Origin: an uncultured Planctomycetales bacterium
GTDB lineage: Bacteria > Omnitrophota > Gorgyraeia > Zapsychrales > CAYRXT01
Length of the DNA stretch: 64,000 bases
Reading direction: 5' to 3'
NCBI GenBank assembly: GCA_964428315.1
Contig: CAYRXT010000001.1
Coordinates: forward strand, 18,944 to 82,943
Part shown: positions 2,901 through 64,000 of the stretch, piece by piece
How positions within the stretch are numbered: position 1 is the stretch's first letter
How the letters are laid out: each line of letters opens with the position of its first letter
The notes under the pieces: generated by a model
Databases searched by the model: none
Seen by the model: the letters and a program-made list of their open reading frames with translations, nothing else
Told to the model about the DNA's origin: nothing
Program-made: the position numbers and the translations under genes

Positions 2901-3062
2901 ATGCGGTTCATCAAACGGTTGGGACGAAGAGGACAAAACATAGTGGAATACACCGTGATCGTTTCCCTGGTTTCTGCGGCGATAACAGCGATGAGTACCT
3001 ACGTGTATCGTTCGGTTCAGGCAGCCCAAAAGAAAATAGAGGCTGAATTCCGGTCGCATTAG
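2901..3062 (+). CDS. flp: Flp/Fap-family type IVc prepilin (53 aa; below the ORF-track size cutoff)
   Basis: Manual translation gives MRFIKRLGRRGQNIVEYTVIVSLVSAAITAMSTYVYRSVQAAQKKIEAEFRSH. It has the G-XXXX-EY class-III signal motif (RRG|QNIV|EY) followed by a hydrophobic helix. Shine-Dalgarno GGGAGGA at 2888-2894. Confidence 0.7.
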   Translation: MRFIKRLGRRGQNIVEYTVIVSLVSAAITAMSTYVYRSVQAAQKKIEAEFRSH

Positions 3063-3120
3063 TCCTTAGGCCTTCCTTTGAATGTAAGGGAGGGATAAAA
3101 GTCTAAAGGAGGGAAAGTCA

Positions 3121-3324
3121 ATGTTTAAACGATTAAGATCAAAAAAAGCGCAGAGCACCTTGGAATACATCATTCTTGTCGCGGTGATCATCCTGGTCCT
3201 CACGATCTTTCTGCCGGGGATTTTCCAGACCCACTTGACGCAGACGTACACCTACGGGACCAACGGGATGCTCGATATGGCCAACCGCCTGAGAAACTCC
3301 CGGCCCGCGTCAAACGCGCAATAA
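3121..3324 (+). CDS. flp: Flp-family prepilin paralog
   Basis: MFKRLRSKKA|QSTL|EYIILVAVIILVLTIF. The Flp motif has Ala at the cleavage position. AAGGAGG RBS at 3102-3108. Confidence 0.8.
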   Translation: MFKRLRSKKAQSTLEYIILVAVIILVLTIFLPGIFQTHLTQTYTYGTNGMLDMANRLRNSRPASNAQ

Positions 3325-3374
3325 TGAAGCAGATAACTTGTCTATGAGAAGGTTTAATCAGGAGGTGAATATCA

Positions 3375-3752
3375 ATGTTTAAAAAGATAAGAAAAAACAA
3401 AAAGGCGCAGTCCACGGCCGAATACGCGATCATGCTCGGTTTGGTCATCGCGGCGGTCGTGGCCATGCAGGTCTATATCCAGCGCGCCATCAAGGGTAAG
3501 CTGTTCGACGCAACGCAGTTTCTGACAACAGCGGGCGCCAACTTCCTCAGGGACGACGGCAAGGCGACCAGCCAGTACGAGCCGGATTATCTGTCCAGCG
3601 ATTACACCTCGACCAGGGACTCGCGTTTGGAGATATCCCAGGAGGTGAGGGATACTGAGATCGGCGGTGTCGGGCAGACAGGCAGTACCAATTCCACGAG
3701 GACAGGACAGCAGATCACGACCTACAACGGTGCTGATGAGATCGATATCTAA
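3375..3752 (+). CDS. flp: Flp-family prepilin paralog with long Ser/Thr-rich C-terminal extension
   Basis: MFKKIRKNKKA|QSTA|EYAIMLGLVIAAVVAM. AGGAGG RBS. The 125-aa length is unusually long for Flp. The C-terminal part contains 'YTSTRDSR'. Confidence 0.8.
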   Translation: MFKKIRKNKKAQSTAEYAIMLGLVIAAVVAMQVYIQRAIKGKLFDATQFLTTAGANFLRDDGKATSQYEPDYLSSDYTSTRDSRLEISQEVRDTEIGGVGQTGSTNSTRTGQQITTYNGADEIDI

Positions 3753-3825
3753 CGCCGGCTTTGTCCTTGACGGCAGTACGCAACCGTTTACCTGTTGAAG
3801 CATAATTGAGGAGGTGTAAAGAGAC

Positions 3826-4158
3826 ATGTTTAAAACACTCAATAAAAAACGCAAAAGAAAAGGGCAGAGTACCCTTGAGTTCACGGTGCTGATCATCATC
3901 ATCATCGGCGCCTTATTGTCCATCCAAGTGTACATCAAACGCGCGGTCCAGGGGAGCCTGAAGTCGGCCGCGGACGACGTCTCGGATGAACAGTACTCTC
4001 CGGGAAACACCAACTACTCCAAGGTCATCAGTTCGAGCTCCACCTCGAGACAGCAGAATGAGTTTGGCGAATTGACCTCGCAGATCATCGGGAACGAGCA
4101 GACCAACGAGACCATCAACACGCAGATCCACAACACGCAATACGAATACTGGGGTTAA
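3826..4158 (+). CDS. flp: Flp-family prepilin paralog
   Basis: MFKTLNKKRKRKG|QSTL|EFTVLIIIIIGALL. GAGGAGG RBS. Followed by a terminator hairpin. Confidence 0.8.
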   Translation: MFKTLNKKRKRKGQSTLEFTVLIIIIIGALLSIQVYIKRAVQGSLKSAADDVSDEQYSPGNTNYSKVISSSSTSRQQNEFGELTSQIIGNEQTNETINTQIHNTQYEYWG

Positions 4159-4192
4159 TCCTGCGTGAAAACAGACGGGCTTACCCGGAGAG

Positions 4193-4219
4193 AGGCTTTC
4201 CGGGCAAGCCTGTTTTTTT
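4193..4219 (+). terminator. rho-independent terminator after the 4th pilin gene
   Basis: AGGCTT (4193-4198), loop tccgggc, AAGCCT (4206-4211), G, then TTTTTTT (4213-4219). Confidence 0.5.
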
Positions 4220-4322
4220 GGGCAGAAAGGTGGAAAAAAGGGCGGCGCCGCAAAAATATGAACCAGGTATGGACGGCCGGCCCTTTTTGCGACATAACAG
4301 TATAAGGTTGGGTTTGAGCGTT

Positions 4323-4739
4323 ATGAAAAGACGTCTTCTCTTATATACGCGACGCCTGCGGCAGGGGCAGGTGGCCACGGAATACGTTATTGTCCTGGGG
4401 GTGGCGCTCGCCGCGGTGAGCGCCATGGCGGTCCTGGGCAAACGGGCCATCCAGGGCAAGCTGTTCGATGCCAGGATGCACATGACCGACAGCGTCCGGG
4501 GGGCGGTCCAGACCCTGAACGACAGGGGGTACATGGCGGAGGGCACGGTCCTGTATTCGGGATACGAACCTTATTACACCCTCACCAATTCGGTCGTGGC
4601 CTCGAACTCGGTTGACACGTACCGCCTGACGGTGGATCCCGATACCGGTCCGACGGCCGTAAAGGAAACAGACGCCTCATCCCGGATCGAGACGACGAGC
4701 GTCCAGCTTCCGCCGGGAGAGGGCGAGGAGACGCCGTGA
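4323..4739 (+). CDS. flp: Flp-family prepilin paralog (track ORF starts at 4218; an in-frame ATG at 4323 gives a typical prepilin leader)
   Basis: MKRRLLLYTRRLRQG|QVAT|EYVIVLGVALAAVSAMAV. The 4218 start would overlap the upstream terminator U-tract, so I prefer 4323. Confidence 0.65.
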   Translation: MKRRLLLYTRRLRQGQVATEYVIVLGVALAAVSAMAVLGKRAIQGKLFDARMHMTDSVRGAVQTLNDRGYMAEGTVLYSGYEPYYTLTNSVVASNSVDTYRLTVDPDTGPTAVKETDASSRIETTSVQLPPGEGEETP

Positions 4740-4761
4740 GATTTCTAGACGGAGACAAACC

Positions 4762-5112
4762 ATGATGTTAGGCGCAAAAAGGGACAAAGGCCAGTCGCTA
4801 CTCGAGCACATCATGCTGGCCTCGATCGTCATCGGGGCCCTGGTCGTCATGTCGGTCTTTATCCGCCGGGGGATCCAGGCGGCGGTGAAGGTGGCGGCCG
4901 ACCAGATCGGGCGCCAGAACGAGGCGGAATTCCGGGAGGACGCGACGAGCGGCTACCTGGTCAATTCCTATACCAGTACGCGTTCGCGAAGCACCAAGAC
5001 CACCCTGCAGAGGCCTTCCGCGGCGGACTCCCTGGGGTATTTGTACGATGACCGCGTGAGGCAGGAGACTCGGACGCTCAGCAACCTGGGGTTCCGTAAT
5101 ACCGTCGATTAG
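4762..5112 (+). CDS. flp: Flp-family prepilin paralog (EH variant of the EY motif)
   Basis: MMLGAKRDKG|QSLL|EHIMLASIVIGALVVMSV. C-terminal 'YTSTRSRSTK' is shared with the paralog at 3375. Confidence 0.75.
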   Translation: MMLGAKRDKGQSLLEHIMLASIVIGALVVMSVFIRRGIQAAVKVAADQIGRQNEAEFREDATSGYLVNSYTSTRSRSTKTTLQRPSAADSLGYLYDDRVRQETRTLSNLGFRNTVD

Positions 5113-5140
5113 CCCTCCGGGGCGCCAGCTGGGAGAGGAT

Positions 5141-5473
5141 ATGTTTAAGAACATCCGTTCGTTCAACAGTACGCGCAAAGGCCAGACAACGGTGGAATAC
5201 GCCTTTATTTTTGTCATCGTCATCGGGGCCCTGATCGCCATGACCCTCTATATCAAACGGGGCATCCAGGGCCGGTGGCGGGAGGCGGTGGACAGCCTCG
5301 GCGACCAGTACGACCCGACCAACATGGACACCCAGATCACGCATACGCTTGATACGAACATCGAGTCCGTGGTATGGACCGAAGAAAACGCTTACGGCCT
5401 GACGACCATGCGCAACGACGTCGTCGAATCCCTGGACACGAGGACGGGCGACTCCACCGTGAGAGGGTATTAA
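5141..5473 (+). CDS. flp: Flp-family prepilin paralog
   Basis: MFKNIRSFNSTRKG|QTTV|EYAFIFVIVIGALIAM. Confidence 0.8.
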   Translation: MFKNIRSFNSTRKGQTTVEYAFIFVIVIGALIAMTLYIKRGIQGRWREAVDSLGDQYDPTNMDTQITHTLDTNIESVVWTEENAYGLTTMRNDVVESLDTRTGDSTVRGY

Positions 5474-5492: not shown

Positions 5493-7133
5493 ATGGAAGG
5501 CGCAAGAGGAGAGAAGAAAAAGGCTCCGGCCATTAACCGCATGCCGACCCGCGCCCAGACCGTGTCGGAGCTGGCGGTCTTCGGGGCCATCCTGATCTTT
5601 GTCATAGGGGCGATGATCCGCTACGCGGTCAACTTTAATTACAACCAGAACCAGCAGCTTGCCGCCATGCGCATGGCTCTAAAGCTTTCTTATCAGGCGG
5701 GAGTCGCAGACAACACCGCCCGGAAATCCGCCACGGTGATTTACATCGAAGACCGGCAGGATGTTTCGCCCGGAAAATACGCTTCGCAGAACCGCACGCC
5801 CTACATCGTGACGGGATCGGGCGCCTTCACCAACGACCTTATGCTCCCGACAGACTGGATGAAGGACAGCGTGCCCATGATGGATATTTTTGTGAACGGC
5901 GAACCTTTTACGTTTTCGACGGCCAGGTACAAGGTCGTGACGGTTGCGCGCGTGACAAATACCGAAAACAATTACGGCTATGATTGTTCTCCGGGCCGGA
6001 GGGACGACGAAGTGCATCCGTGCACGCCGGCGTTTCCGGACGAATGCCCTGATGGCATTGATTACAGGAGGGTCTGGTCCACGGAGAACAACTGGACAGT
6101 TCAGCCGGCGCCCTGTTTTGCCTCCGGGGGCTCCGGCTGCGGCGTGTTCCTTGCGCGGCTCGCCAATCTGCCTTTGTCCCGCGACAAACGGTTTTGTCTG
6201 GTGAGGGAAAGGTGTCCGGTCCATTTTCCGTGGGACATGCCCCTCCAGGACCGTTTCAACCTTGATCTGAGCAGTACGTTTTACACAGGCGGGCGGGGTC
6301 AGAAATGCACGGGTAATACGGGTAATCCTGATTATTGCGACGTCATAGGGTCGGATCTGGCCATGACGGCCTTTCCCTGGCAGTGGGACTATGTGAAGGG
6401 CACGACCTCGGTCGTCAATTTCGGCGAAGGGGGCGTGACCGGCCTGGACGTCGATCTCGACGGCAAGGAAGAGCAGGTGATGGGGTATACCGATCACCTT
6501 GACCGCACTGTTTGGGCAGACGGCAGCTCTTCTTCTCCGGACGAAGAGGAATGTCCTTTGTCGAGCACAGACGCGATCATAGTCAAATTTTACGTCATGG
6601 ATTCCCAGGACGGAGACTGGGACGGAACATTCGGTGATTGGGACAAAAGGTTCCATCCGGATAGGGTGGCACCGGGACTGGCCTCGGAGCAGGCCATGGT
6701 TACCCAGACCAACGTTGAAGGCCGGCGGGGGACATTCCTTCGGATTACCGAGGCAAACAGGCAGTCCCGTTCCGAGCAAAAGAGCGACCGTCTGGACATC
6801 ATAGAGAGGAAGATCCAGCTGAGCAACGATACCGGCCGGCTGTGCCGGAAGAATTACGGTCCCGACGTTGTTTGTTGCTGTGATCCCGCGCAGGATCCTT
6901 TTTGTCCGCCTGACCCGGGGGCAAGCGTGACCATCCCGGTCGGAGGGCGCAGGCGCGCCGTCTACTGGAACTGCGGACCGGAGGCGTGCCTTTCGCAGGG
7001 CGCCGGGGCCCCGATTCCGGATTTGATTTACCGGCATTGCTTCGACCAGAAGACCAAGGTTTTGCACATCCGCAGCCGGATAGGCGAGAGGCGCGGCACA
7101 CGGTGGATCACGGACACCAGCCCGCGGAATTAA
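5493..7133 (+). CDS. TadE/TadF-like pseudopilin with a large Cys-rich (~18 Cys) C-terminal domain; putative minor pilin or tip adhesin
   Basis: N-terminal class-III signal-like 'RA|QTVS|ELAVFGAILIFVIGAM'. The 546-aa size is far larger than canonical TadE/F. Cys clusters include 'VVCCCDPAQDPFCPPDPG'. GGGGGA RBS. Confidence 0.6.
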   Translation: MEGARGEKKKAPAINRMPTRAQTVSELAVFGAILIFVIGAMIRYAVNFNYNQNQQLAAMRMALKLSYQAGVADNTARKSATVIYIEDRQDVSPGKYASQNRTPYIVTGSGAFTNDLMLPTDWMKDSVPMMDIFVNGEPFTFSTARYKVVTVARVTNTENNYGYDCSPGRRDDEVHPCTPAFPDECPDGIDYRRVWSTENNWTVQPAPCFASGGSGCGVFLARLANLPLSRDKRFCLVRERCPVHFPWDMPLQDRFNLDLSSTFYTGGRGQKCTGNTGNPDYCDVIGSDLAMTAFPWQWDYVKGTTSVVNFGEGGVTGLDVDLDGKEEQVMGYTDHLDRTVWADGSSSSPDEEECPLSSTDAIIVKFYVMDSQDGDWDGTFGDWDKRFHPDRVAPGLASEQAMVTQTNVEGRRGTFLRITEANRQSRSEQKSDRLDIIERKIQLSNDTGRLCRKNYGPDVVCCCDPAQDPFCPPDPGASVTIPVGGRRRAVYWNCGPEACLSQGAGAPIPDLIYRHCFDQKTKVLHIRSRIGERRGTRWITDTSPRN

Positions 7134-7197
7134 AGCGGCCTCGCAATGACAGCAGTTTGGACAGCATTGATTTGGCAGTAATTATGAGGCAGGTCTT

Positions 7198-7503
7198 ATG
7201 AAAAGAAAAGTTTATGGTAACCACCGCGGTCATCCCAAGGGCCAGGTCCTGCTCGAGTTTGCCTTCTGTATGATCGCCCTGATGGTTCTTGTCTACGGCA
7301 CGGTCATGGCCTTCCGCTGGTGCGGCATGAGCCTGGTGGGCCGTTCGTCCGCCCACTGGTCTGTGTTAACGAGGGAAGTCAGAGACGATTTTGAAAATAA
7401 TGATCCTGTAAGGCCTGACACCCAAGTTTCGATAAGCTTTGAACGGCCGGCCAGGGACGGTTTCGACTTTGTCATGCCCAACGACGTCATCTATGGAGAA
7501 TAG
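7198..7503 (+). CDS. tadE: TadE-like pseudopilin
   Basis: 'KG|QVLL|EFAFCMIALMVLVYG' matches the TadE/TadG N-terminal motif. 101 aa. Confidence 0.6.
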   Translation: MKRKVYGNHRGHPKGQVLLEFAFCMIALMVLVYGTVMAFRWCGMSLVGRSSAHWSVLTREVRDDFENNDPVRPDTQVSISFERPARDGFDFVMPNDVIYGE

Positions 7504-7506
7504 GCC

Positions 7507-10500
7507 ATGCTGACATCAATGAACAGGTGGATGCGGGGAACAAAGAGGAAGGGCATTTTTTCCGCGATCGGCGGTAGCCGCCGGGGCCAGGTCGCGTTAC
7601 TCCTGGTGATCCTCATCGCCGTCGGCCTGATCTTTTTCGCGGTGACCCTTAATCTGGGCAAGATCGCCCAGATCCGGGTTTACACGACCATGGCCTCAAA
7701 CACGAGCGCGGCTTTCATGGGATCCCTCATGGCCAGTTACGCCGAGAGCATGTATCAAGCGCAGCTTGGCGGCGAAGAGGAATGCGGCGATGACCTGACT
7801 GTTGACAAGTGGTCCGGGTTGGCGGTGGCTATTCTGACGATTTTTGCGGCCATTATATCGGTGCTCACCTGTCAGCCGGGACCGGTTATGGCAGTCGTTT
7901 CTATCATTGGCCTGTCGGCGGCGCTGGGTTCGGCGGCCATTCAGCTTTCTGTGATCCAGCCCGGGCTGGATCAACTGCTTAATACGATGTTCGAGTCCAT
8001 CGAATCGCCGGCCGACCAGTTTGTCGAACGGGGCATCTACACAGCGTTGAGGAACAGCGTCACGGACTCCGAGGTCGTCGATGATATCTATGACATGGAT
8101 ATGGACGGGCTTTTCGCGCCGCATGACAGAGTCAGCCGTTTCGCTTATTATTACACGGCCTTTCGCGTCCAGGATTTCACGCCTCCCACGGCCAACCCGC
8201 AGGCCGTGGCGAATTTTCTGACGGATCTCGGCGAGTTCGTCTATGAGCCGTATTATTACCTTAAAGGTCTTTCTGGTTCGAATGCCTGGCGGGTTCCCCA
8301 TCTGAATGTTCACGGAGACGACTGGGCGCTTTTCTCTCCAGTAAGATGTGAAAATGACATCGCCCACGTGTGTTGCGCTCCTCCTCCTGTCCCACCGTGT
8401 CTGGGCCTGGACTGCAGCGATCCGCAGGCGCGTGATGAACATCCGGAATGCTGTCGCGCTGCTTATAATTTTTGCCGGACGAATACCCCCCTCGATCATT
8501 CCGAATGCTCCAGGGATAACGATGATTTTGAGGATATCGGCCGGGCGTACGCGGAGTGCAACCCCTTGTGCGCCTTCTCTTGGGCGGGGTGCTCATCCCT
8601 GGGGCATTACTGCGGGACAGACTGCTATGATGGGCGTTGCCGCATCTATGACCCGTTTTTCCACAACGACGAATTAGATCCCGGGGATACCCTTTATTTT
8701 AAACCTTTTCTCGGTCGGGACGACGGAAACGCGAAATGCATAGACGATCCAGTTTCCGGCATTCCGGAAGATGACCCCATCGGCGGCGACCGTACTGTTA
8801 ATACGTCCGGCGGGCGGATGGTCACGGACGCGAAAGGTCTGTTCCGTCTTTTGTGGGTTTTCGGCAAAATGGTCGATCTGCGTGAAGTGAACGAAATTCA
8901 TGTCTCCGCGTTTGGCCGCCGGGAACTGTGCGTGTGGTGCAATACGGACTATGAGGCATGTGAAGTCCCTTCCGTCAGGAATCCGGATTTGCCGGATTGT
9001 CCTCTCAGGGCCGTCGATCTTCAAACCTGCTGTGTGCATGAGGGAAACCGCTTCGACGCCGTTCCGAATGCGACGGACCTGGTTATGGATGAAGACGCCT
9101 GTCCGCACCAGCCCGGCATACCTTATGAAGAAAATGCCCACCATGAAGTGATACAGGTCAACAGCCTTTGGAAGCCCGGCGACGACATGTATTGTTCTTT
9201 CGATGCCGTTTCGCCGTATGATGAGCTCTGTCCCTGGCTGCATTGTCTGCCCGGGTGCGACGCCTGTGATCCGGACGGCGGGCCGTGCGCGGCCGACGGG
9301 GCGTGCTATACAGAGCATACGGACAACCCTGCAGGGACTACACTTACCGACCCCTACAATTGGACCCGGGATCCTTTGGACCAGATGTCTATGGAGATCA
9401 ATGAATTTGTGGCCTGGGCGGATTCGATTCTTTCCAAGGATGTTTTGGTCCTGGGCCGGACCGTTGCTTCCTGGTTCCCGCAAGCCTTTTACTGGATTCA
9501 CCCCGAACGGGGCCGTCTGGCTCACTGGCTGGCCTATCTCAGGGGCGTCAAGGAAAAGCTCGAGGAGTGGAGGGACGGCACCTACATCGATCAGGACGGG
9601 ACCGACTGCCTCACCGTGTGTTACGAGAGCGGGGCCAATTGTTCCGATAACACGCCGCCCGAAGGGGTGACGGGAACCATGTCCGACATTGTCGCCTGCC
9701 TTGAAGAATACCGGGACACGTTTGATCCGCAGAACAACACATACGCCAAGATCGATTACCGCGTCAAGTTTCTCCGGGAATACGTAACCGACGATGACAG
9801 CGTTTTGAACAGATTGATCAATGACACGGACGGGACGCTGACGACCGCTATCAGGAAAATCGAGGATTTTCTTACGCATGCTTCCGGTGATTACGGCGGC
9901 GTTCAGCAGATGATAGAAGAATGGGAACGGTTTATGAAAGAAACAGATTACGCCTTGCCCGGACGGGCCATGTACGGCTGGAAGGATACGGAAGAAGACG
10001 GCGGGATGTGGCATATCGTGTACGCTGAAACGAAACTGCCGACGCGCTGTGACTGCCGCTGCGGGAGGCAGGGCCATAACTTGGGCGGATATAACGATGA
10101 TTGTCCAGAATCGGATTTCCCCTATGTGCACCACTATAAGCGTTACGGGGGCTCGAAACGTTATTATTCGCTGGTGGACAGTCTGGACCGGCACGTTGCG
10201 TGCGATGAAGACTCTGTGGGCGATAGGGAATACGATGATGACACGCATTGTTTTCGGGGAGGGACGGTCAAGTCACGCGTTATCCGCTATGACCAGGACC
10301 ACGACTTTGTCGAATTTGCCAATAGATTTCGCATCTGGCGTTTCGTGTACAGCCGTCCGGGCACAACGCCTATCAGCCCGGAAAGGCTTGATTCGGTCTG
10401 CGCCCCCCAGAGCAGCGCTGTTTCCAGACCCGGAGAGGAGGCTTTTCTTTTGAATCGGAGAGGGGATAATCCTCGGTGCTGGGATCTTGCCTCACAGCTA

Positions 10501-10629
10501 TTACGTCGGGGTGTTAAAGATGAGACGTGCGTTGAGTACTTCTTCCGGGATGTCGGCCATTTGGTTGATCTTGCGGAGAGGCGCAGGGGTATTTATACCG
10601 CGTTTACGCCCTGTGAAGGAGAGTGGTAA
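7507..10629 (+). CDS. TadG-like pilus-associated protein; 1040 aa, extremely Cys-rich (~46 Cys); putative pilus tip/adhesin
   Basis: N-terminal 'RRGQVALLLVILIAVGLIFFAVTL' is a pseudopilin-like hydrophobic segment. Many CxxC, CC and CxC clusters. Coding is tightly packed with the flanking genes. Confidence 0.55.
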   Translation: MLTSMNRWMRGTKRKGIFSAIGGSRRGQVALLLVILIAVGLIFFAVTLNLGKIAQIRVYTTMASNTSAAFMGSLMASYAESMYQAQLGGEEECGDDLTVDKWSGLAVAILTIFAAIISVLTCQPGPVMAVVSIIGLSAALGSAAIQLSVIQPGLDQLLNTMFESIESPADQFVERGIYTALRNSVTDSEVVDDIYDMDMDGLFAPHDRVSRFAYYYTAFRVQDFTPPTANPQAVANFLTDLGEFVYEPYYYLKGLSGSNAWRVPHLNVHGDDWALFSPVRCENDIAHVCCAPPPVPPCLGLDCSDPQARDEHPECCRAAYNFCRTNTPLDHSECSRDNDDFEDIGRAYAECNPLCAFSWAGCSSLGHYCGTDCYDGRCRIYDPFFHNDELDPGDTLYFKPFLGRDDGNAKCIDDPVSGIPEDDPIGGDRTVNTSGGRMVTDAKGLFRLLWVFGKMVDLREVNEIHVSAFGRRELCVWCNTDYEACEVPSVRNPDLPDCPLRAVDLQTCCVHEGNRFDAVPNATDLVMDEDACPHQPGIPYEENAHHEVIQVNSLWKPGDDMYCSFDAVSPYDELCPWLHCLPGCDACDPDGGPCAADGACYTEHTDNPAGTTLTDPYNWTRDPLDQMSMEINEFVAWADSILSKDVLVLGRTVASWFPQAFYWIHPERGRLAHWLAYLRGVKEKLEEWRDGTYIDQDGTDCLTVCYESGANCSDNTPPEGVTGTMSDIVACLEEYRDTFDPQNNTYAKIDYRVKFLREYVTDDDSVLNRLINDTDGTLTTAIRKIEDFLTHASGDYGGVQQMIEEWERFMKETDYALPGRAMYGWKDTEEDGGMWHIVYAETKLPTRCDCRCGRQGHNLGGYNDDCPESDFPYVHHYKRYGGSKRYYSLVDSLDRHVACDEDSVGDREYDDDTHCFRGGTVKSRVIRYDQDHDFVEFANRFRIWRFVYSRPGTTPISPERLDSVCAPQSSAVSRPGEEAFLLNRRGDNPRCWDLASQLLRRGVKDETCVEYFFRDVGHLVDLAERRRGIYTAFTPCEGEW

Positions 10630-13696: not shown

Positions 13697-13702
13697 TATA
13701 AC

Positions 13703-53300: not shown

Positions 53301-56300
53301 CCGTGATTGAAGAAAACGATGAATCTGAAACGGCCGCGCGCCGTCTGGGACTGCCCATCGAAGAGAGCCGCAGTGTCGGACCGGGGATGACAGAAGATTT
53401 AACAGGGATGAAAATGGCCCAGGCCTCGACGGGCCGATACCTGGTGGCGGCCAACCTTTACAGGGCCCTCCCCATCTTGACAAGGAAGCAGATAAACCGG
53501 TTGGCCGGCGGCGTTATCGACCATGTGCGCTTTGTCCTGACCGGAGAAAACGCGCAAGGCGTCATTGAACTTTATCCGGTCCAGGCGCCCGAACCCTGGA
53601 CCTACGCCCTGGCGAAGGTCCCGTCAAATTCTTTCTTCGGTGATGCCAGATACCGCGATATACATACAGACTGCGTCACGCACGAAGCCGAGCATTTGTT
53701 CAAATATAACCGGATGGACATGCCGCTTTACATGAACACGGAGGTGGCTTTCAACGGCGGGTACATCCGGCTGGGGCCGGACGTCGTGCTTATGCGCGCG
53801 GTAGCGGTTTCCTTGTATAACCACTTCACCGGAAAGGACATGGTCGAGCCCGGGACAGCCTGGCAGGGGAGGCCGTGGCTCCAGTATCCGCATTTTGAGG
53901 AAGGCGGCTGGGCCGACTGGCAGGGGAAATGGGGCGGCTGCGTCGATTCACTGAGAAATTATATTGCGCGGAAAGCGGAGCGTGAAATCGTTTCCGACCG
54001 CAACTCTGAGATCGAAGAGGCCATCGCGGCGTACAGCCGCGGCCGGGATCTTTACCGCCTTTCCATGGGATACAGGGAATTCCTGGAGGAAAAATACGGT
54101 CCGGCGGCCGCGCGGTTCGGCGCGGACGTCTTCTTTGAATGGGTTAGCCGTTTCCCGGTCCTGGACGCGGACGTCGACACCTTGAGCCAGAAAGGCGTTT
54201 ACGGGCTGAGCCCGGCCGGGGCGGCGGTGGCCGCGGAGGCGACCGCGCGTTCCTATGCGTCGGACATCAGGGATATCTTCGTTGATGTCTGGAAGGGGAT
54301 ACGGCTTTGGAGCCATCAGGGCGTGACACCCGAGCAGGCCGCCGGCCGCGCGCGTTCGGCCTTTTACCGGACCTATGTGCCGGTGATCGTGGAAACCGTC
54401 AGAAGTATGAACGTCCCGCTGAGGGCCGAAGGGGCTCAGCTGGATTCTCTCGTCGGAGTTGTTATCGAAAAATTGGAAGATTTCGCGTATACGGGCGGCG
54501 ATATGTTTGACCCGGCTGTGCCGATGGATATTGCCGACGCGGCGGTTGTCGCGGCGGTGCTTGACGAAAATATCGGGCACAACTACACCGTGGACAACGG
54601 AGGTTTCAGTGTCATGGCCGATTCGCTGGACGAGGCTGAAGGAAAACAAGTGGCGATGAGCGCCGCCGGCGAGGCCGTTTTCTGGCAGGAGGACCCCGTC
54701 CCCGGCGAGCCGGGCCCGCTGCCCGTTGTCCCGGGGCGGCAGAACTTTATCGTCAGTTCGGTTTTCCTGACGGCAAACTGGATCCGGTCAATGCTGTCTC
54801 AAGACGCGCGGGCCCTTGACAAGACCTCCTCCGCGGCCGTGGAGGGCTTCTTTTACACGCCGCTTCCCGACGCCGATAATGTCGTCGAGGATACGGCGAT
54901 GACGGCGCTGTTCCGGGACAAGGTCTCGGAGATGGGCTGGCCGCACCCGTATCTGTTCCGCGCGATCCCGGTGTTTTACGTGGACAGCCGGACGGCGGAT
55001 TCCCTCGGGGTGACATGGGTCGGGCCCTACGAAGACTTCACGTCAAATGGATTCTCCCCGGAGGCGGACCCGGACCAGGACAGGGTTGTTTGGGCGCCGG
55101 TGGTGGACGGGATGTGGGGCGGACCGGGTCCGGCTCCGGAGTACCAGGACTATTACGACCCGGACAACCCGGATTACGACATGGCCGAGGATTATTCGGT
55201 GAGCCTGGCCGATACGGTTACCGGCGAGATGTGGGACTTCTGGTATTTCCGGGTGGATGTCCACGGCAATTATTACGCCTCGGCAGTGAAGTACTGGGGG
55301 CCGGGCAGCTGGCGGGGAGACGGGATCAGCACCTGTCAATATCCGGGGATCCGGGGCGCCGGGACACCGCTGGGCGCCGGACTGCTGACGCAGGAAGAGA
55401 TCCTGCGGGCGCGCGGAGGAGACATGGACGCGGTCACCCACAAGCTGATTTTCGCCTGGCCCTATTCCAGCAGTGAGATGAGATGGCCGGCGACACGCTC
55501 CGACGGGTGGAGGAGCGCGGGCGAGGGGATACCGGAAGGAACACTCTTACAGCTTGACCCGGGACATGATTATGAGCCGTATATCCGCCATTTGTCTTCC
55601 GAAGAAGACAGGAACGTGGCCCTCGCGCTGATCCGCGCGCTGAAGACATACGGCGCGGTCTGCGTGGACAACGGCGGAGGGTTCGGGATCATCGTCGAGC
55701 AGGTGGACGGCACGCACGCGAAACTGAACCCGGACTGCCTGGCGGGGATCAACCTGGACAAGTTCCTGGTCGTGGCGCCGGAGAGTTTCCCCGCGGGCCT
55801 GGCACTGGAGCGGAGGATTGATCCGGAGGATCCCCTTGAGGGATATAAAGAGGTCGGTATTGAGCTGATTGTCAACAGGGACGATCCGGCGGCCGCCTCG
55901 AAGGTCCGCGCCGAGTTCCGTTCGCTGGACGGCGAAAGCCTGGTGGAAGACAACAGGCACTTGATGCGGATGAACCTGGCGGCGGGTGAATTCGCGTGGC
56001 AGGACATGGGAGACGGCCGGGCGCGGATCGCCTTCGGGGTGGAGACTTCCAGCCGGGGCGGGGCGGAGAGCCTCATGGCCGACACGAGATACATCATGCG
56101 CCTGACCGTGGAGGACGGGCGGGGCGCCGAGAGCTATCCGCTGATCCATTCCTTCCGGTCGCCGGCCGTGGCGACGGACGTGGTCCCGGCCGCGGACGGT
56201 GACGGCGAAGATGGAGGAAATCTCCCGCAAAACTACCCGAACCCGTTCAATGCGGCCACGTCGGTGTGGTATGAGGTGCCGGAGGCCGGGCGCGTGGAGC

Positions 56301-59300
56301 TTAAGGTGTACACGGTCTCCGGGCGGGAAGTGAGGACGCTGGTGGATGAGTACCGTGAGGCCGGGCAGTACAGCGTGGTGTGGGACGGGCGGGATGATTC
56401 CGGCAACAGCGCCGCCGCCGGCGTTTACCTGTACGTGGTGAGGCTTGACGGCAGGGTCATCGCGTCGAAGAGGATGACGCGGATGGCGGCGCAGAGGGAC
56501 GGCCGGCAGGGATGGCTGGGAAGCCTCAAGGACCTCTTCAGCATCTCTGAGGCGAGCGCGGCGGTCGAAAATCGGTACGCGGCGGCGCGGATGAAGGCTG
56601 GACCTTTCGCCCTCGAGCCGGCCGAAGCGGCCGCGCGGGCGGTCAACACGCCGGAGCCCGCCGGTCAAAACGCTGAAGAAGGCCGCGTCAGCCTGACGCT
56701 GGGGGATGTTTACGAATATATTGACATGCTCAGGGATTACAGTGACGGGCAGATACAGGGATATTTTGACATGGTCCCGGCGCTTCAGACGGCGGAGGTA
56801 TGGGAGGATTACGCGGTCATGGTCCGGATCCTGCTCCGGGAAAAAGGCGTTGCCGGGGACCCCCTGCGGTATGAACTCTTTGCCAGCCGGCCGGAAGGTC
56901 CCGGGACCGAAGTCGTGCCGGCGGTCTCCGAAGAGGAGGCCATGGATATCCTGACCGGGAAGAAATACGCCTACGACACCTTGGCCGTCAAAAGACTGTA
57001 CAAAGAAGTTATCGAGGAGCATCAAAGCAGGATGGTCCGCGACCCCGGGCTTTCGCGGCTGGAGGTCTTCCTCATGCGGTCCCAAAACATCACGCCGGCC
57101 GAGGGGCCGGAGGCGCGTTTTGGGCGCTTACAACGGACACACGCGGACGATGAGTTTGTCTCGGCCAATAGGCGTATAACCCTTTATGGTAAGGACATTT
57201 TCCACCCGACATACATCCTGGACATAAGGGGAACCGAAGTTGTGCTTAATGTGAGCCTGAAACCGGTGTTCCAGACCGCCGCGGCCGAACAACTCCTTGG
57301 GAAAATTGATGCCCGCGGCGCCGAAACCCAGGCGCTGGATATGGTGGACACACTGATGATATATATGGAAACCGCCTGCCGGGCGGAAGAGGCCGGGGAC
57401 AGGGAAAGCGCCCTGATCAACTGGAAACACGCGCTGTGGCGCGCGGAACAACTGCAGAGACTGCCCCAACCATCCTTCAGGTGGTGGTATTACGAATTCG
57501 CTGAGGACCTTGTCGATTCTATCAGGCAGTATATCCGCCGTCATTATGAGGCGCCGGGCCGGGGTATTTGGGATCGGCCCGGAGCCGTCCTCCACGGTTG
57601 TTTAAAAGGAAAGACGGGGCCGGCGGCCGGTTCGATCGTGATGAGCCTGGCGCCGCTTATGGCGCGCGCGGCCGATCAATTGGCCGGCGCCTTTGCCCAA
57701 AAGCGGCCATCGCGGGAGCCATCTATTAAAGATATTAATGGAATTATTAAGAAAATAGACGGATTAAAGGCAAGCGTGACCAGGGAAATAGCATCTCGAG
57801 AAGATGAAAGGAAGGTTAAGGATGCGAGGAAGAAGATTTATGCGTTGATATCGAAACTATACATTTACGCGTCAGAAAGCAATATCGGTATCGAAGGTTT
57901 TAAGAAGGAGGCCTGGAAGCTGATCGACCTCGCGGAGTGGGGCAACATTAACGTCAGGATGAAAGCCAGAGATCAATTACGAAGTATCTTGAACAAGAGG
58001 ATCCCGTCCATGAAAGAAGATCCTCGGCATAAAGATCATTTGGATGAAATAAAAAAGATCGAGAAGGAAATGAAGAGAATTATTGATGAATTTGATAATC
58101 GAGGCAAGAAGAGCCCCCGCGGATGTGCCCCGGCGCCTTCCATGGTCAAGACGGTCCTGCGGGCGGCGATGAATGGAGTTCAGTATATCCTTGCCGGCCC
58201 CGAGCTCCAGGCGGCGGAGGCCGCTCATGCCGCCGGGGACAAGTTCTGGCAGGATGTGGCCGCGCAGGGAGAATACAACCAGGCGGACATCGACGAAATG
58301 GCGCGGGTCACCGACAGCCTGTGGCTCGCCGCGGACCTCCCCTCGCCGGATGACGTGGAACAGGACTTGGTGCCGGCCCTGAAGACGGTCTCGACCGCGG
58401 AAGATTCCCTGGAACTGGCCCGGTCGTTCCTCTCGGCATGGGAAGTGGAAAAATTCAGGTTTCAAGACGCAAGGCAGCATGTCCTTTTCTCGCGGATCTT
58501 CGCCGCCCCGCTGGCCGCCGCTGACAGTATGCGGAGGGTTTTGAGCGGAGACCGCGGGACAGACAGGATAGAAGATGTCCTCGGCGAAGGCTGTGCTCTG
58601 GGCAGGCCTTACGCCGGGGCCGTCCTGTCCCGTATTTTTGAAGAGACGGCTGTTGATGTGCTGGGGATGGATTTGCCGGGGCATGTCTGCGTCTTTGTTG
58701 CCCTGAACACGGAGTACGGGTTTATTTATGACCCTTCATCGCTGACAACAAGCCGGGTCTTCCGTCTGGCGCGGTACACGGAGAAGGCGGGAGAGACCTA
58801 TTACTTCAAGGAGGCGTTCTACACCGAGGTCATGCCCGAAGGGTGGGCACCTGACAGGGATATATACACGGAGTTCCGGCTGTTATCCGTTGAGAAGTTC
58901 GCGGCAAAGATTCTGTTCAATATTGGCACTTACTATCTTGACCTTGATGCATTCTCAGCAGCGGCGGATTATTACAGACGAGCGCTGGCCGTGGATTCGA
59001 CGGACGCGGACGTCCTTAACAATTTGGGTAACGCTTATTTCAATCTGGGCGAATACGGGGCCGCGGCCGAACAGTACACGGCGGCGCTGACCTATAATCC
59101 CGAGAGCATTGAAAGCCGCAAATATCTGGCCCTGACCCTTGCTGAGCAAGGCAAAAAGACGGAGGCCATAATCAATCTTAAGGCATACCTGGGCGAACGG
59201 CCCGACGATTATGCAATGATGTTTCAATTGGCCCGTATGCATACGGCGAAGATTTGGATGATTTTGGGGACTTTTTTGGCCGCTTGTATCGTGGTCCTGG

Positions 59301-62300
59301 GAAGAAAACTCGGCGGACGGAACAAGGGCCGCGGCGACGGGAGCCAGGACCGTAAGGCGGGGGCGCCGGATAACGGGCGAAAGGGAGAAGACACTCATCT
59401 CAAAGCCGGGATTGAGATTGAGGGGCCGGCCGCGCGGATCATCCGGACTGTCCGCGGGTGGATGAGGAAGCTGGTTTTCAGGCGGTATGCTTCGGACACT
59501 GTTAAGGCCGCGCGCGAGAGGGCGCCTCCTGTCCGGAAGATATTCTCCCGCCTTGCTGCTTATTTTACTCAATCCCAAAGGACAAATTCCGCATCACAAG
59601 CCAATGACCATATCGAATTTTTAAATCCCAAACGGTTTCGGGCTTTGACATTTTTGACGTTCCTGACGGCCTTCTTCTTCAGCAGTGACCTGCTGGCGGC
59701 CGGGAACGCGGCGGCGCAGGAGGCCGCGCGGTCTTCCGGCCTGGAAGGCCTGGTAATCCTGCTGGCGCTGGGCGCGCTCGCGCTGGGGATGTACTGGTAT
59801 CACGCGGCAAGAGATGAAGAAGAGCCGGGCCTCTCCGATACCGGCGAAATCATGAGCCGCTGGCTTTACCAAGGGGAAGACCTCCTCGCGCTTGTGGACG
59901 GCGATCCCGACACCGCCGCGGAAGTCCTCAAGGTCCTCGAGGTGCTGACCGACCTGACCGGATTGAGGGGCGCGAAAGATCCCAAACTTAAAGCCGTTTT
60001 TGAAAACGGCCGTGACCAGTTCATGATTGCTCTGGACCGGCGGGGTCTCGGGCCGGAAGACCTGGAGCCGGTCATGGCGTCTCTCAAGACGTCAGCCGGC
60101 AAGGCCGCGCGGACTTTGCGTAATGAAGAATCCGTTGAACCCGCCGCGCGTAAGGATGAGGTAAGGCAACCCGTAGACCCCGGCGAATTTTCTCTGGCGA
60201 AATGGCTGGGCGGCGCCGTGGCCGCCGCCGGCCTCGTCGGACTGCTCGGCCGGCTGGCCCTGGCCGGAACGGCGGAAGCCGGCATCCTCTGGCTGGCCGG
60301 GGGCATAATTGTGGCCGGGGCGGCCACAATTCTCCTGGACCTGATTGTCCCGCGGTGGGATGACTTCGCGGAGGGCCTGAAGCGGATGAACGATCCGGAG
60401 TGCCGGCCGGAGCCGGTCCGGGGCGCGAGCCCGATGAAGCATTTCTGGCGCTGGACCGGCATCATCGTCCCGGTCCTCGCCGCGGCCGCGTTCCTGGCGG
60501 GCGTGATTTCGGTCCCCGCCGCCTTTGTCTCCGCGTTTTTCGGGCTGACGGCGCTGTTCGTCAGCTTCGGCTACGGCCGCGAAGGCGGTTCCTACATGAG
60601 CGGCGTGCGGCATTCCAGGGTGTTCCGGTTCGGCATGGCCCTGATGGCCGGCCTGCTCGTGATCGGGGTGTTCGCGGGCGGGGCCGACGCGCAGGACATG
60701 GGGCGGGTCGTCCAGGTCGACTACGACCGCGACGGGTTCGACGACATATCGGTGAGGCTGCCCGAGAGGGCCGGGCTCCACAGCCTCGCCGGCAAGGCCC
60801 CGGAAAAGAGCGTCTCCGAGCTGGAAGAGTTCTTTGCCGGGAACCCCGGTGTCATCGCGATGGTCCGCGAGGACCTCGCCCGGGACAGCCTGAAGCGGAC
60901 GATCCGCGATTCGCTCGACACCGAGGACTTGTACCGGGGCACGCTGGATTCGCTGGCGGCCGCGAAGACCGAAGAACTGGCCAAGTACAACCCCGGCACG
61001 GACCTCGGGGCCGACGCCGCGCTGGCCAGGAAGATGCGCGGCATCGTGCTCGACGAAGAGGCCGAGCTCCGCGCGCGCGAGAGGATCTCCCGCGACCCCG
61101 AGGCCGCGGCCGCTGTCGAGGTCAACGACGAGGCAATCAGCGAGGCGATTAAGCGGACCGCGGCCGCCGTGGACCTGCGCCACGTCTGGCCCGTCCGCGC
61201 CGAAAAGCACGGCCTGCCCGTCAACGACCTCTGGATGGCCTACGCGATCCTGGGCGGCAACTTCCCCGACATGACCGGGGACGAGATCAGCGCCACGGTC
61301 TATCGCCTGTTGAAAGAAAACGACGATTTCGGCGCCGCGTTCACGGATTTCCTGGAGAAGAAAAAGGCCGGCGCGGCCGCGGACGAAGAAGAGGCCGCCC
61401 TCAAGGCCCTCGAGGTCACCTTCGCCGACAACCCTGATATCATCCCGTCCATCGTCCGGACCTGGAACGAGCGCCGGGAATTGCTGGAAACCTATTTCTC
61501 GGACCTCGGCGCCTTCGGCAAGTTCACCCGGGCCGTGATCATGCAGGAGAGCGGGTTCGGCACCTACGCGACGAGCCACAGGTTCGACAGCTCCGGCAGG
61601 AAGATCCCGCTGGCCAAGGGCCTGATGCAGATCATAGACGCGACCTATGCGGACCAGAGCGGGAAGCTGGGGCTCGGTCCGGACGTTTACCACCGTCTCG
61701 ACAACGTCCGGGCCGGTACCGATTATTACGCGGATCGACTCAGGGATTTCCGGGATATCGAAATGGCCCTGGCCGCGTACAATTACAGAGCTTATAAGGT
61801 CGCGGCAGCTATTGCCGAAGCCAAAGGCATTTTGCTGACTGTCGCGAAGGAGAGTTTTACAGATTTGATAGCCGGAGGAAATATTGACGCTTTTCTGGAC
61901 GAGAACAGGGATTCCTTTAGAGAGTCTCCTGAAGAGATCAAGGCCGCGGCCGAACATCTGTCTGCCGATATGGCCGGGTTAAATGCGCTGCTGGGCATGA
62001 CGGCGTCTGATGCAAAGCGCGATAAGGTCACCAGGAAGCTCGCGGCGCCCAGGGTCTTGGAGATGATCGCCGAGGGCTCGCTGAAACCCAGTTTTGGGGA
62101 GACCGTTTCTCTGCTTCCCTCCGAGACCCAGAATTACGTGCCCAGCATCCTCCACATGTACGGCCGTGCCGTCGAGTACGTGGAGGCCAAAACCAGCGGC
62201 AGGCCGGCCGCCGTCAAGGCGCGGCCGGGAGCGCCGGATTACAGCAAATATATTCCGACAGAAGAGAGCCGGACTTACGACCCCGCCCTCGAGATGAGGG

Positions 62301-64000: not shown

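Follow-up and report, generated by a model that had tools for sequence, protein, structure and literature searches.

Giant genes that accompany a pilus locus have been described before in the Omnitrophota, where they are among the largest genes known in biology. A preprint by West-Roberts et al. (2023, bioRxiv 10.1101/2023.11.21.568195) reports Omnitrophota giant genes with an N-terminal C39 domain and with SLT, GGDEF and TPR domains, and delimits such loci by an open reading frame (ORF) of more than 30,000 aa (>90 kb), an N-terminal C39 (or S8) domain near a signal or transmembrane (TM) segment, and numerous TM helices. Directly upstream of the giant gene it describes a conserved locus for secretion or a pilus, which includes small genes with class-III signals, and it mentions a divergent SecA_DEAD domain and PilZ genes downstream. 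A 2026 preprint (10.64898/2026.06.07.730766) repeats this coupling and names a Tad-pilus assembly cassette. Both preprints already offer the same hypothesis of adhesion combined with cell-wall attack. In Velamenicoccus archaeovorus LiM the giant protein measures 39,678 aa; attached cells of this species express the Tad complex and contain 3-fold higher levels of giant-protein peptides.

The 64,000-nucleotide stretch of DNA analyzed here (the window) begins mid-cassette; of the conserved Omnitrophota locus of pilus cassette plus giant gene, it covers the two thirds on the downstream side. The association between a Tad-type pilus cassette and the gene for a giant membrane protein (>16,500 aa) is real and strongly conserved, and it is typical of tiny Omnitrophota bacteria, whose lifestyle is probably predatory. 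The locus agrees with the described giant-gene loci in having homologues in Omnitrophota MAGs only, an N-terminal C39 domain by a TM/signal segment, many TM segments, SLT, GGDEF, HATPase_c and TPR domains, and an upstream pilus locus with class-III-signal genes; the hypothesis of attachment and wall degradation applies to it equally. The original prediction had held that the layout could not be placed in any described system. Because the two preprints already describe the pairing, the present locus is a new example of a known, experimentally uncharacterised arrangement and not a new system.

With the N-terminus of the giant ORF as query, matches were found in Omnitrophota MAGs only. The order of pilins, 546-aa protein, 101-aa protein, 1040-aa protein, pilin, TadB, TadC, spacer and giant gene is retained in essentially every locus with adequate flank. 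In a reverse search, with the 546-aa protein as query, 12 of the 14 informative loci had the giant N-terminus following TadC. The conserved synteny proposed as a check in the original prediction was therefore found in both search directions and across dozens of Omnitrophota species. TadB and TadC are 47-57% identical in relatives and the giant N-termini about 35-53%; the order is nonetheless kept. At least one relative (L072) carries ordinary genes after the cassette instead of the giant gene. In relatives, the 5' part of the complete cassette encodes RcpC/CpaB, a secretin fused to TonB_C, a TadZ-like::TadA ATPase, a DUF192 protein and a helix-turn-helix (HTH) protein, and the 3' part encodes five to eight Flp-like pilins, a minor-pilin-like trio, one further pilin, TadB and TadC. 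There, TadC is followed by a spacer of 0.6-3.7 kb and by a giant ORF whose first encoded features are a TM helix and a C39 peptidase domain. The RcpC and secretin head of the cassette, present in 16-17 of 18 relatives (Pfam: Secretin E=1e-42, T2SS-T3SS_pil_N, RcpC E=3e-23), is known from these relatives only, since its position falls beyond the sequence at hand for the source genome. Upstream of the window, the contig of the source genome (L109) does contain the ATPase C-terminus, which is 65% identical to a protein with ParA-like and T2SSE domains from a relative (L104), and the DUF192 gene. No cassette protein was named by NCBIfam. With these data the gene order of the pilus cassette can be stated exactly and for the whole phylum; the accessible text of the two preprints contains no mention of this order, of the HTH member or of the shared DNA motif described below.

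All genes of the window discussed here lie on the plus strand. Seven tandem genes (2901-3062, 3121-3324, 3375-3752, 3826-4158, 4320-4739, 4762-5112 and 5141-5473) encode putative prepilins with Flp/class-III signals, as judged by their N-terminal site, by profiles and by homologous arrays in relatives. An eighth Flp-like pilin gene is located at 10623-10898, where the gene caller sets the start at ATG 10632 and predicts an 88-aa product. All eight small pilins show a basic leader, then the motif [G/A]|[Q/S]xxxE[Y/F/H], then a hydrophobic helix. Profile support for the pilin and TadE assignments is weak but present, with scores at or under threshold: the gene at 3121 matches Class_IIIsignal with 24.6 bits (cutoff 23.7), while the gene at 2901 matches Flp_Fap with E=0.004, which is below the profile cutoff. 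The original prediction had placed eight Flp pilin paralogs immediately upstream of the giant gene; their number and strand hold, but about 9 kb of cassette genes separate the main pilin block from the giant gene.

Between the pilin block and the eighth pilin gene lie the genes of the minor-pilin-like trio. The 546-aa protein (5493-7133) has a TadE/KilL-like N-terminus (AQTVSELAVFG) and conserves a DVDGDxKEE motif as well as its C-terminal cysteines. The 101-aa protein (7198-7503), a TadE/TadF-like small minor pilin whose position is conserved, is the only member of the trio that touches the TadE profile (E=0.009). The 1040-aa protein (7507-10629) has a TadG-like N-terminus (RRGQVALLLVILIAVGL...) and is a candidate tip or backbone minor pilin; it may have three TM segments, not one. 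The two large proteins share the pilin-type N-terminus and contain 18 and 46 cysteines, respectively, compared to 25 in 16,551 aa of the giant protein, consistent with their earlier description as very large, Cys-rich and pseudopilin-like. A PDB profile search with the family of the 1040-aa protein gave no match, and an AF2 model of this protein, based on 7 sequences, was unusable (pLDDT 39.5). As a candidate host-recognition tip, the trio provides a testable handle.

The cassette ends with adjacent but separate genes for a TadB-like platform protein (11069-11929, 286 aa) and a TadC-like platform protein (11952-12887, 311 aa), each with a single T2SSF domain (PF00482, E=9e-17 and E=2.3e-13), in line with the TadB/TadC assignment made beforehand. 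A prepilin peptidase of the A24 type (TadV/CpaA) was not found in the window or among the scanned genes of the representative upstream cassette; its gene may reside elsewhere in the genome.

In comparison with the Tad/Flp (type IVc) pili of Aggregatibacter actinomycetemcomitans (tad) and Caulobacter (cpa), the common features are Flp-size prepilins, a G|xxxxEY-type site, separate TadB and TadC, candidate TadE/F/G-like minor pilins and, in the source genome or its relatives, RcpC/CpaB, a secretin with a pilus N-terminal domain and TadZ-like and TadA-like ATPases. Unlike those systems, this cassette has eight pilin paralogues, Cys-rich minor pilins of very large size (546 and 1040 aa), TadZ and TadA fused into one protein of about 720 aa, a secretin fused to TonB_C, and DUF192 and HTH proteins inside the cassette; in addition, a prepilin peptidase was not seen in the genes scanned and the pilin profile matches are marginal. 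A further relative in kind is the Tad-like killing pilus Kil of Myxococcus xanthus with its KilL/M/N "Tip" minor-pilin complexes (Seef 2021, PMC8460266; Herrou 2025, PMC12075869). Both are Tad-type machines of a contact-dependent predator, putatively so in the present case, and both have a TadE/F/G-like trio, a candidate one in the present case. It consists of one small and two extended proteins, in which the distal domain is very large and variable and numerous disulfides are predicted. This likeness is one of layout, and the T3SS* partner of Kil is replaced here by a giant membrane protein.

The giant ORF starts at its first ATG at 14348 and is cut by the end of the window at 64000, so that at least 16,551 aa are visible. 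Frame 2 of the plus strand is free of stops from 14330 to 64000 (16,557 codons) and the ORF runs past the window. An assembly artefact can be dismissed for the giant gene. In a Logan assembly made independently from another read set, the 5' segment of 21.7 kb is identical and encodes the N-terminal 7,244 aa unchanged, internal repeats are almost absent from the protein, and homologous giant ORFs are open to the end of the available sequence in 46 of 49 loci. These observations, together with 49.7 kb without a stop in one frame and intact catalytic motifs, speak against an artefact or a decayed pseudogene, an explanation for which we found no supporting point and to which we assign practically no probability. 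An assembly artefact had been raised as a refuting case in the original prediction and is not borne out; the window instead holds a clean, non-repetitive example of an Omnitrophota giant gene. Inside the giant gene, many long ORFs on the minus strand could pass for real genes; we read them as putative shadows of one strongly biased coding frame.

The visible part of the giant protein carries a series of recognizable domains. An N-terminal Peptidase_C39 domain (14765-15157, aa about 140-270; PF03412 at aa 191-270 with 29.1 bits, cutoff 22) comes after a TM segment at aa 28-46. Cys148 and His233 are invariant in nine homologues, and, since the region had no match among PDB sequences, it is this invariance on which the assignment of the catalytic residues is based. 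An OmpA/Pal-like peptidoglycan-binding domain (19787-20044, aa 1814-1899, E=3e-15) has the motif TDxxGxxxYNxxLGxxRA, retains the D and the R of the binding motif, and is nearest to Pal lipoproteins, whose ligand is the producer's own peptidoglycan. Two paralogous GHKL/HATPase_c modules (35174-37504; aa 6943-7180 and 7474-7719) are followed by two GGDEF domains (38891-40402; aa 8182-8400 and 8488-8685; E=3e-55 in total). Both GGDEF domains have GGEEF and an RxxD I-site five residues upstream, and both diguanylate cyclases are apparently active. Further downstream are a Peptidase_M50-like multi-TM region (48254-48691, aa 11303-11448) with a degenerate HExxH motif (HEVKG) and a retained NLLPxxxxDG motif, two copies of a TM module (51536-52147, aa 12397-12600, and 59747-60379, aa 15134-15344) that are 49% identical, and TPR repeats (58934-59239, aa 14863-14964). 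A search of representative proteins with the TM module gave zero matches, in a library from which the query protein was also missing and which may lack the giant proteins altogether. An SLT lytic transglycosylase domain (61529-61825, aa 15728-15826, E=1.7e-11), directly 3' of a TM cluster, contains the family-1 set of motifs ES (QESGFG), GLMQ (GLMQI) and AYNY (AYNYR) and is apparently active.

The OmpA, SLT and paired GGDEF domains and the paralogous TM module that had been read from the letters alone were all recovered. The predicted sensor-kinase modules are present as two HATPase_c domains, but the HisKA profile gave no match near either of them. Histidine sensor kinases carry a DHp/HisKA domain with a phospho-accepting His by HATPase_c; here, the second module aligns with the DHp and CA region of FixL-type kinases, with AHQVKT in place of the H-box. 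The supposed T9SS-tail-like tag does match TIGR04183 (31.7 bits, cutoff 23) as a Por_Secre_tail/FlgD-Ig beta-sandwich (56234-56470, aa 13963-14041). In T9SS cargo the type A sorting domain is C-terminal; this one is internal, being followed by several TM segments and by 2,500 aa or more, which does not support its reading as a C-terminal sorting tag. The N-terminal C39 domain, the M50-like region, the TPR repeats and the cassette membership of the 621-aa gene at 155-2020 had been missing from the original prediction.

In comparison with the named subtypes of Omnitrophota giant genes, the visible 16.5 kaa lack the defining glycosyltransferases, HEAT repeats, NUDIX, SecA_DEAD and dockerins. SecA gave no match in this part, and the features of the archaeovorin subtype (glycosyl transferases, methyltransferases, glycosyl hydrolases, NUDIX and HEAT repeats) were absent from it at E<=0.01. 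Conversely, we found no mention of OmpA/Pal-like, M50-like or internal Por_Secre_tail domains in term searches of the two preprints. Family-1 SLT motifs and a Pal-like domain encoded with a trans-envelope apparatus also recall machine-associated lytic transglycosylases (VirB1, EtgA, FlgJ) and Pal/OmpA anchors (Pal, MotB). Those are separate small proteins, whereas the small domains are embedded here in one polypeptide of more than 16,000 aa.

A hydropathy scan found about 30 hydrophobic segments along the giant protein. Because the domain order allows it, a concrete topology can be proposed, with the Pal-like anchor outside the cytoplasm, the GHKL/GGDEF block inside and SLT outside. The segments at aa 28-46, 6535-6553 and 9607-9625 would place the OmpA-like domain outside and the HATPase/GGDEF block inside the cytoplasm, in a crude scan in which three weaker hydrophobic segments (310-786) could invert the assignment.

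The gene at 155-2020 encodes a 621-aa protein in which a disordered linker (60-170) connects a Tc3/IS630-like HTH domain (aa 1-58) to a C-terminal domain (170-621) without a clear fold match. Since this gene is syntenic in 17/18 relatives, we rejected its interpretation as a transposase insertion and consider it a cassette member and a candidate regulator. A PDB profile search with the HTH family returned nothing, nor did a Foldseek search of the HTH model against the PDB at E<0.3. A promoter-like sequence (TTGACG-16-TATACT, 60-87, plus strand) lies ahead of the gene. A second one (TTGACG-17-TATATT, 2467-2495, plus strand) and a terminator-like hairpin with a T-run (2633-2668, plus strand, -13.5 kcal/mol, z -2.2) lie 5' of the pilin genes.

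The spacer of 1.46 kb between TadC and the giant gene (12888-14347) is AT-rich as originally described, with a GC content of 0.49 compared to about 0.58-0.60 around it. It contains a terminator-like hairpin (13848-13877, T-run to 13887, -20.3 kcal/mol) and copies of a conserved motif of 12-16 nt, (A)ATGTCCAATCTG(A), for which we found no earlier report within the literature searched. Three overlapping copies form a hairpin or palindrome (13086-13120), and a degenerate palindromic pair (14300-14316) lies 32 nt before the giant ATG. Outside the spacer, the leader of the HTH gene holds two degenerate copies (TTGTCCAA, 101-108, and ATGTCCATTCTT, 121-132, plus strand), and two more are located directly 3' of that gene (ATGTCCAATCAT, 2041-2052, and TTGTCCATTCTA, 2064-2075, plus strand). 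The motif is about 12-fold enriched in TadC-giant spacers, with its heptamer occurring at 2.16 per kb in 44.9 kb of spacers versus 0.18 per kb elsewhere; 93/157 matches to the 12-mer fall in spacers and 25/157 within 100 nt upstream of the HTH gene. In relatives, the motif lies 13-40 nt 5' of the start codon of the homologous HTH gene, and spacer copies are absent in loci without a giant gene after TadC. In many loci, a reverse copy does overlap the giant gene itself, at codons 3-7 following its first in-frame ATG. As a source of the giant gene's start codon (ATG TCC AAT CTG) the motif was rejected, because such copies are out of frame.

Enriched in the spacers and also located immediately 5' of the HTH gene, the motif points to a regulatory circuit dedicated to the locus, in which the link between motif and regulator is positional. 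We tentatively consider, at somewhat less than even confidence, that the transposase-derived HTH protein, whose position is conserved throughout the phylum, binds the motif in its own promoter/leader, in the spacer and at the giant 5' end, and so acts as a switch; if so, expression of a gene of 50-250 kb would be tied to the pilus cassette. Motif and HTH protein together offer a second testable handle, on a candidate regulator of giant-gene expression; neither handle alters that the pilus-giant coupling itself is already in the literature. The spacers hold several copies, often as 12-bp inverted pairs, and a more speculative reading would make these pairs recombination sites of a phase-variable switch. 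An invertible promoter is unsupported: related spacers are collinear in all pairwise comparisons, as judged on consensus assemblies in which an inversion could be hidden, and the minus-strand matches are palindromes only. Rfam returned nothing at gathering score for the whole window, and the only match in the spacer, ctRNA at E=0.12, overlaps the terminator-like hairpin; known riboswitches, those for c-di-GMP among them, are therefore not recognized here. When the spacer was compared with those of relatives by six-frame tblastn, no conserved small ORF emerged.

Taken as a whole, a conserved locus in which a pilus contact apparatus is combined with a giant envelope partner is the explanation that we moderately favor. 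The Tad machine would polymerize Flp-like pilins, cleaved at [G/A]|Qxxx-E-[Y/F], into a pilus. The disulfide-rich trio of 546, 101 and 1040 aa would form the tip that touches a host or prey cell, in parallel to the KilL/M/N Tips of the Myxococcus pilus. The giant protein would be a multi-pass inner-membrane polyprotein, perhaps cut into pieces by its own C39 domain. Its large periplasmic or surface stretches would present the Pal-like peptidoglycan anchor, the Ig-like domain, TPR and SLT, and a cytoplasmic stretch would hold the two GHKL ATPase modules and the two diguanylate cyclases. In this form it could serve the pilus as an envelope-embedded partner for adhesion, wall remodelling and c-di-GMP signalling. 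Because of the terminator-like hairpin in the spacer, the pilus operon and the giant gene are apparently separate transcription units, and the HTH protein would probably autoregulate and control the giant gene through the shared motif. As originally proposed, the pilus may conceivably deliver or anchor the giant protein, to judge from the gene arrangement.

Instead of an adhesive pilus, the cassette could alternatively encode a machine dedicated to secretion or assembly. A pseudopilus piston of the T2SS type would then work with the secretin to export or insert, through the outer membrane, either the giant protein itself or fragments left by C39 cleavage. West-Roberts et al. indeed term the locus a secretion system (gspD/E/F homologues). 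The conserved secretin and ATPase, an N-terminal C39 domain typical of export-coupled processing, the conserved position of the cassette directly 5' of its cargo gene, and an internal Por_Secre_tail-like domain that would come to lie at a fragment end in a cleaved polyprotein all fit this explanation. We nevertheless consider it unlikely: RcpC, a secretin with a pilus N domain, a TadZ-like partner, single-domain TadB and TadC and Flp-size pilins constitute the set of a Tad pilus, not of a T2SS, and the eight pilin paralogues and the large Cys-rich trio resemble the tip complexes of adhesive or killing Tad pili. The many TM segments also argue that the giant protein is not a soluble periplasmic T2SS substrate. 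Even less probable, in our estimate, is a neighborhood of merely inherited synteny with pilus genes and giant gene functionally uncoupled. Separate transcription units are probable given the 1.46 kb spacer and its terminator-like hairpin, and one relative has the cassette without an adjacent giant gene; against this stand an order that is kept in both search directions despite identities of ~50% for TadB/TadC and about 35-53% for giant N-termini, and a spacer motif common to the cassette HTH gene and missing where the giant gene is missing.

The favored contact apparatus leaves room for two targets of the peptidoglycan-directed domains. An attack of the SLT/OmpA pair on prey can be imagined from the domain content, and a role at the own wall is equally possible for this pair. 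In its full form, the latter idea makes the Pal-like domain a tether between the giant protein and the producer's sacculus, with SLT opening local gaps that let the giant protein and the pilus machine span the envelope. The giant protein would then be a self-envelope "coat" and c-di-GMP scaffold and not a weapon, a reading that we regard as less likely than not. It draws on the kinship of the OmpA/Pal-like domain to Pal lipoproteins of the producer's envelope, on the position of SLT directly after a TM cluster, and on the known prey of the sole studied Omnitrophota predator, an archaeon without murein. Dedicated lytic transglycosylases also go with trans-envelope machines (VirB1, EtgA, FlgJ), which counts in the same direction. 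Carbohydrate-import and glycoside-hydrolase genes, found downstream in other genomes according to the literature, instead fit feeding on wall polymers, and giant-protein peptides are up in attached cells. Both of these observations are still compatible with a role in the producer's own envelope, and the own-wall reading is itself compatible with the pilus reading.

The Tad pilus genes and the giant gene of the original prediction were both confirmed by gene and domain evidence. On the + strand of the window, a gene for a 621-aa protein (155–2020) is followed by seven small tandem genes (2901–5473), the genes for three minor-pilin-like proteins of 546, 101, and 1040 aa (p546, p101, p1040; 5493–10629), an eighth small gene (10623–10898), and two TadB/TadC-like genes with T2SSF domains (11069–11929 and 11952–12887). 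Past a 1.46 kb spacer (GC 0.49 vs about 0.58–0.60 in flanking DNA), a + strand frame is stop-free from 14330 to the window end. From its first ATG at 14348 it encodes at least 16,551 aa, a lower bound because the open reading frame (ORF) continues past the window. The many minus-strand ORFs of 150–900 aa listed within 16–63 kb are read as putative shadows of one biased coding frame. The giant ORF is not an assembly artefact: the independent Logan assembly SRR7048225 is identical over the cassette and the initial 7,244 aa. The N-terminal 700 aa match only partial proteins from 'Candidatus Omnitrophica' MAGs, and 46 of 49 homologous ORFs are open to the end of their available sequence (up to 3,845 aa).

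The linkage is conserved. With one genome taken for each species, a scan with the giant N-terminus returned 37 loci from MAGs labelled Omnitrophota, 'uncultured Planctomycetales' or, once, only 'bacterium'; the last two kinds are taken to be mislabelled. In every locus with enough upstream DNA, tblastn recovered one order: pilins, p546, p101, p1040, pilin, TadB (47–56% identity), TadC (49–57%), a spacer of 0.6–3.7 kb, and the giant N-terminus. The reverse search of metagenomes with the p546 family yielded 69 loci, and the giant N-terminus follows TadC in 12 of the 14 that extend more than 1.3 kb past this gene. Two loci carry the whole Tad cassette and lack the giant N-terminus in the 2–4 kb past TadC; ordinary genes follow in L072 (17800–21638) and 2.2 kb of ORF-free DNA in L082 (19077–21323). 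Upstream of the pilins, 16–17 of 18 relatives encode RcpC/CpaB, a secretin fused to TonB_C, a ParA-like::T2SSE fusion ATPase (about 720 aa), DUF192, and a protein homologous to the 621-aa one. The source genome encodes an ATPase C-terminus and DUF192 just 5' of the window, which therefore begins midway in a complete Tad-type cassette. Because the 621-aa gene recurs in this cassette, we rejected its assignment as a stray transposase. In relative L104, the secretin with C-terminal TonB_C (1042–2784) and the ATPase combining a ParA/TadZ-like domain with T2SSE (2810–4963) are fusions unusual for Tad systems. The source genome also encodes a double zinc-ribbon protein of about 76 aa between DUF192 and the 621-aa gene (contig L109, 815–1045, − strand), and this gene (cluster c7) recurs in several relatives.

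All eight small proteins carry a short basic leader and a [G/A]↓[Q/S]xxxE[Y/F/H] site before a hydrophobic helix; cysteine is absent from them apart from three residues in the eighth. Pfam lends thin support to their putative identity as pilins, with Class_IIIsignal slightly above cutoff in one gene and under cutoff in two others, and a sub-cutoff Flp_Fap match in one. NCBIfam named none of the window's pilus-gene proteins. Pilin-type N-termini are also found on p546 (AQTVSEL...), p101 (GQVLLEF...), and p1040 (GQVALLL...), a trio called Cys-rich (18, 2, and 46 cysteines). Across 13 species the p546 family conserves this N-terminal segment together with a DVDGDxKEE motif and cysteines at the C-terminus; the AF2 model of p1040 has a pLDDT of 39.5. 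The closest mechanistic analogue is the Myxococcus Kil Tad pilus, in which the TadE/F/G-like KilL/M/N trios form 'Tips' that are variable, rich in disulfides, and determine prey range (PMC8460266, PMC12075869). The window trio resembles these Tips in the features compared, namely size pattern, N-termini, and Cys content. The giant contains 25 cysteines in 16,551 aa (0.15%) vs 3.3% in p546 and 4.4% in p1040, a contrast that could stem from distinct compartments or folding pathways.

Searches of Pfam, PDB sequences, and NCBIfam located in the giant Peptidase_C39 (aa 191–270), an OmpA/Pal-like domain (1814–1899), two GHKL/HATPase_c modules (about 6943–7719), two GGDEF domains (8182–8685), an M50-like multi-TM region (11303–11448), a weak CHU_C-like region (12756–12805), FlgD-Ig/Por_Secre_tail (13963–14041), TPR (14863–14964), and SLT (15728–15826). 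HisKA was not found by these searches in the visible 16,551 aa. Only kinase-like, GGDEF, and TM modules (the TM pair 49% identical) are duplicated in a protein essentially without repeats. Cys148 and His233 of C39 are invariant across nine homologues, both GGDEF domains have intact GGEEF and RxxD I-site motifs, and the M50-like HExxH is degenerate. A hydropathy scan placed one TM at the N-terminus (28–46), isolated segments at 6535–6553 and 9607–9625, and TM clusters at 11334–11692, 12364–12642, and 15099–15443. If three weak hydrophobic segments at aa 310–786 do not span the membrane, the Pal-like domain would be extracytoplasmic and the block that uses ATP/GTP cytoplasmic, which would be a coherent topology. 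A zincin-like HEIGH at aa 6565 (window about 34040), directly past the predicted TM 6535–6553, and a third GGEEF string at aa 3132 (about 23741), outside every detected GGDEF domain, may each be chance.

These data partly support the proposed contact pilus with cell-wall attack. In the reading favoured here, the Tad pilus would make contact and the giant, as a multi-pass polyprotein, would be its envelope partner. What fails is the T9SS tail as a sorting tag, because this domain is internal. Its QNYPNPFN... signature of T9SS type A sorting domains (TIGR04183; window 56234–56470) precedes TM segments and could terminate a fragment only given polyprotein cleavage. The OmpA-like domain retains its peptidoglycan-binding D and R, and SLT retains ES, GLMQ, and AYNY. 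The main alternative, which we consider rather unlikely, is that these two domains serve the producer's own wall instead of prey attack. For Omnitrophota giant genes with N-terminal C39, many TM helices, SLT, GGDEF, and TPR, West-Roberts et al. 2023 (10.1101/2023.11.21.568195) propose a role in adhering to prey and digesting walls. Seymour et al. 2023 name the Tad complex and giant ORFs as hallmarks of Velamenicoccia and also relay that V. archaeovorus expresses its Tad complex in co-culture and that giant-protein peptides are up 3-fold in attached cells. A 2026 preprint (10.64898/2026.06.07.730766) reports that secretion or pilus genes flank 13 of 14 giants, among them a 'Tad-pilus assembly cassette', with C39 as the largest architecture cluster. 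Hence the central idea is a rediscovery: the layout, which the original prediction could not place in any characterised system, appears with the same hypothesis in West-Roberts et al. and the preprint. The locus is another example of a known, uncharacterised Omnitrophota giant-gene kind, and its main value lies in the candidate tip trio and a testable regulator–motif pair.

The spacer contains ATTGGACATTTATGTCCAATCTGATTGGACATAAA at 13087–13121, which folds as RNA with a z of −5.1; three overlapping ATGTCCAATCTG copies cover 13086–13120. A degenerate palindromic copy lies at 14300–14316, 32 nt 5' of the giant ATG, and further sites at 101–132 and 2041–2075. In relatives, 44.9 kb of TadC–giant spacers contain 97 copies of the heptamer TTGGACA/TGTCCAA, compared with 93 in 523 kb elsewhere, and the motif (A)ATGTCCAATCTG(A) shows about 12-fold enrichment in this interval (homologous spacers, L003–L039 and L043–L106). 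Allowing at most one mismatch, a 12-mer scan of 1.33 Mb gave 157 matches: 93 in spacers, 25 within 100 nt 5' of the start of the 621-aa (HTH) gene, nearly all in + orientation, and 20 inside that gene. The motif stands 13–40 nt 5' of the HTH-gene start, often directly after a TATACT/TATAGT box. The window shows the same pattern, with TTGACG-16-TATACT at 60–87 and two degenerate copies before ATG 155. Inverted pairs are frequent, either as 12-bp arms with a 10-nt gap or about 105–113 nt apart at the giant-gene 5' end, and many loci carry a reverse copy that overlaps giant codons 3–7. Spacer copies are absent from loci without a giant gene after TadC (including L072 and L082). The HTH protein is modelled with a Tc3-like DNA-binding domain of three helices, joined by a disordered linker to a C-terminal domain whose predicted structure weakly resembles Tn5 transposase. 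From motif position and conservation we therefore propose that this protein binds the motif and regulates both its own gene and the giant gene. A full-text literature search for the motif returned unrelated primers only, and its sharing by spacer and HTH gene is apparently new.

The pilus operon and the giant gene are probably transcribed separately, as suggested by a terminator-like hairpin at 13848–13877 (−20.3 kcal/mol). Around it, at mid-spacer (13819–13887), a promoter-like TTCGCA-17-TATAAT leads directly into this 9-bp GC-rich hairpin with its U-run. The sole Rfam match here, ctRNA_p42d (E = 0.12), is taken to be the hairpin itself. Upstream of the first pilin gene, the segment 2467–2668, which has no Rfam match, contains a strong promoter-like TTGACG-17-TATATT and, about 140 nt on, a terminator-like hairpin with T-run; a leader/attenuator is one possibility and a small RNA another.
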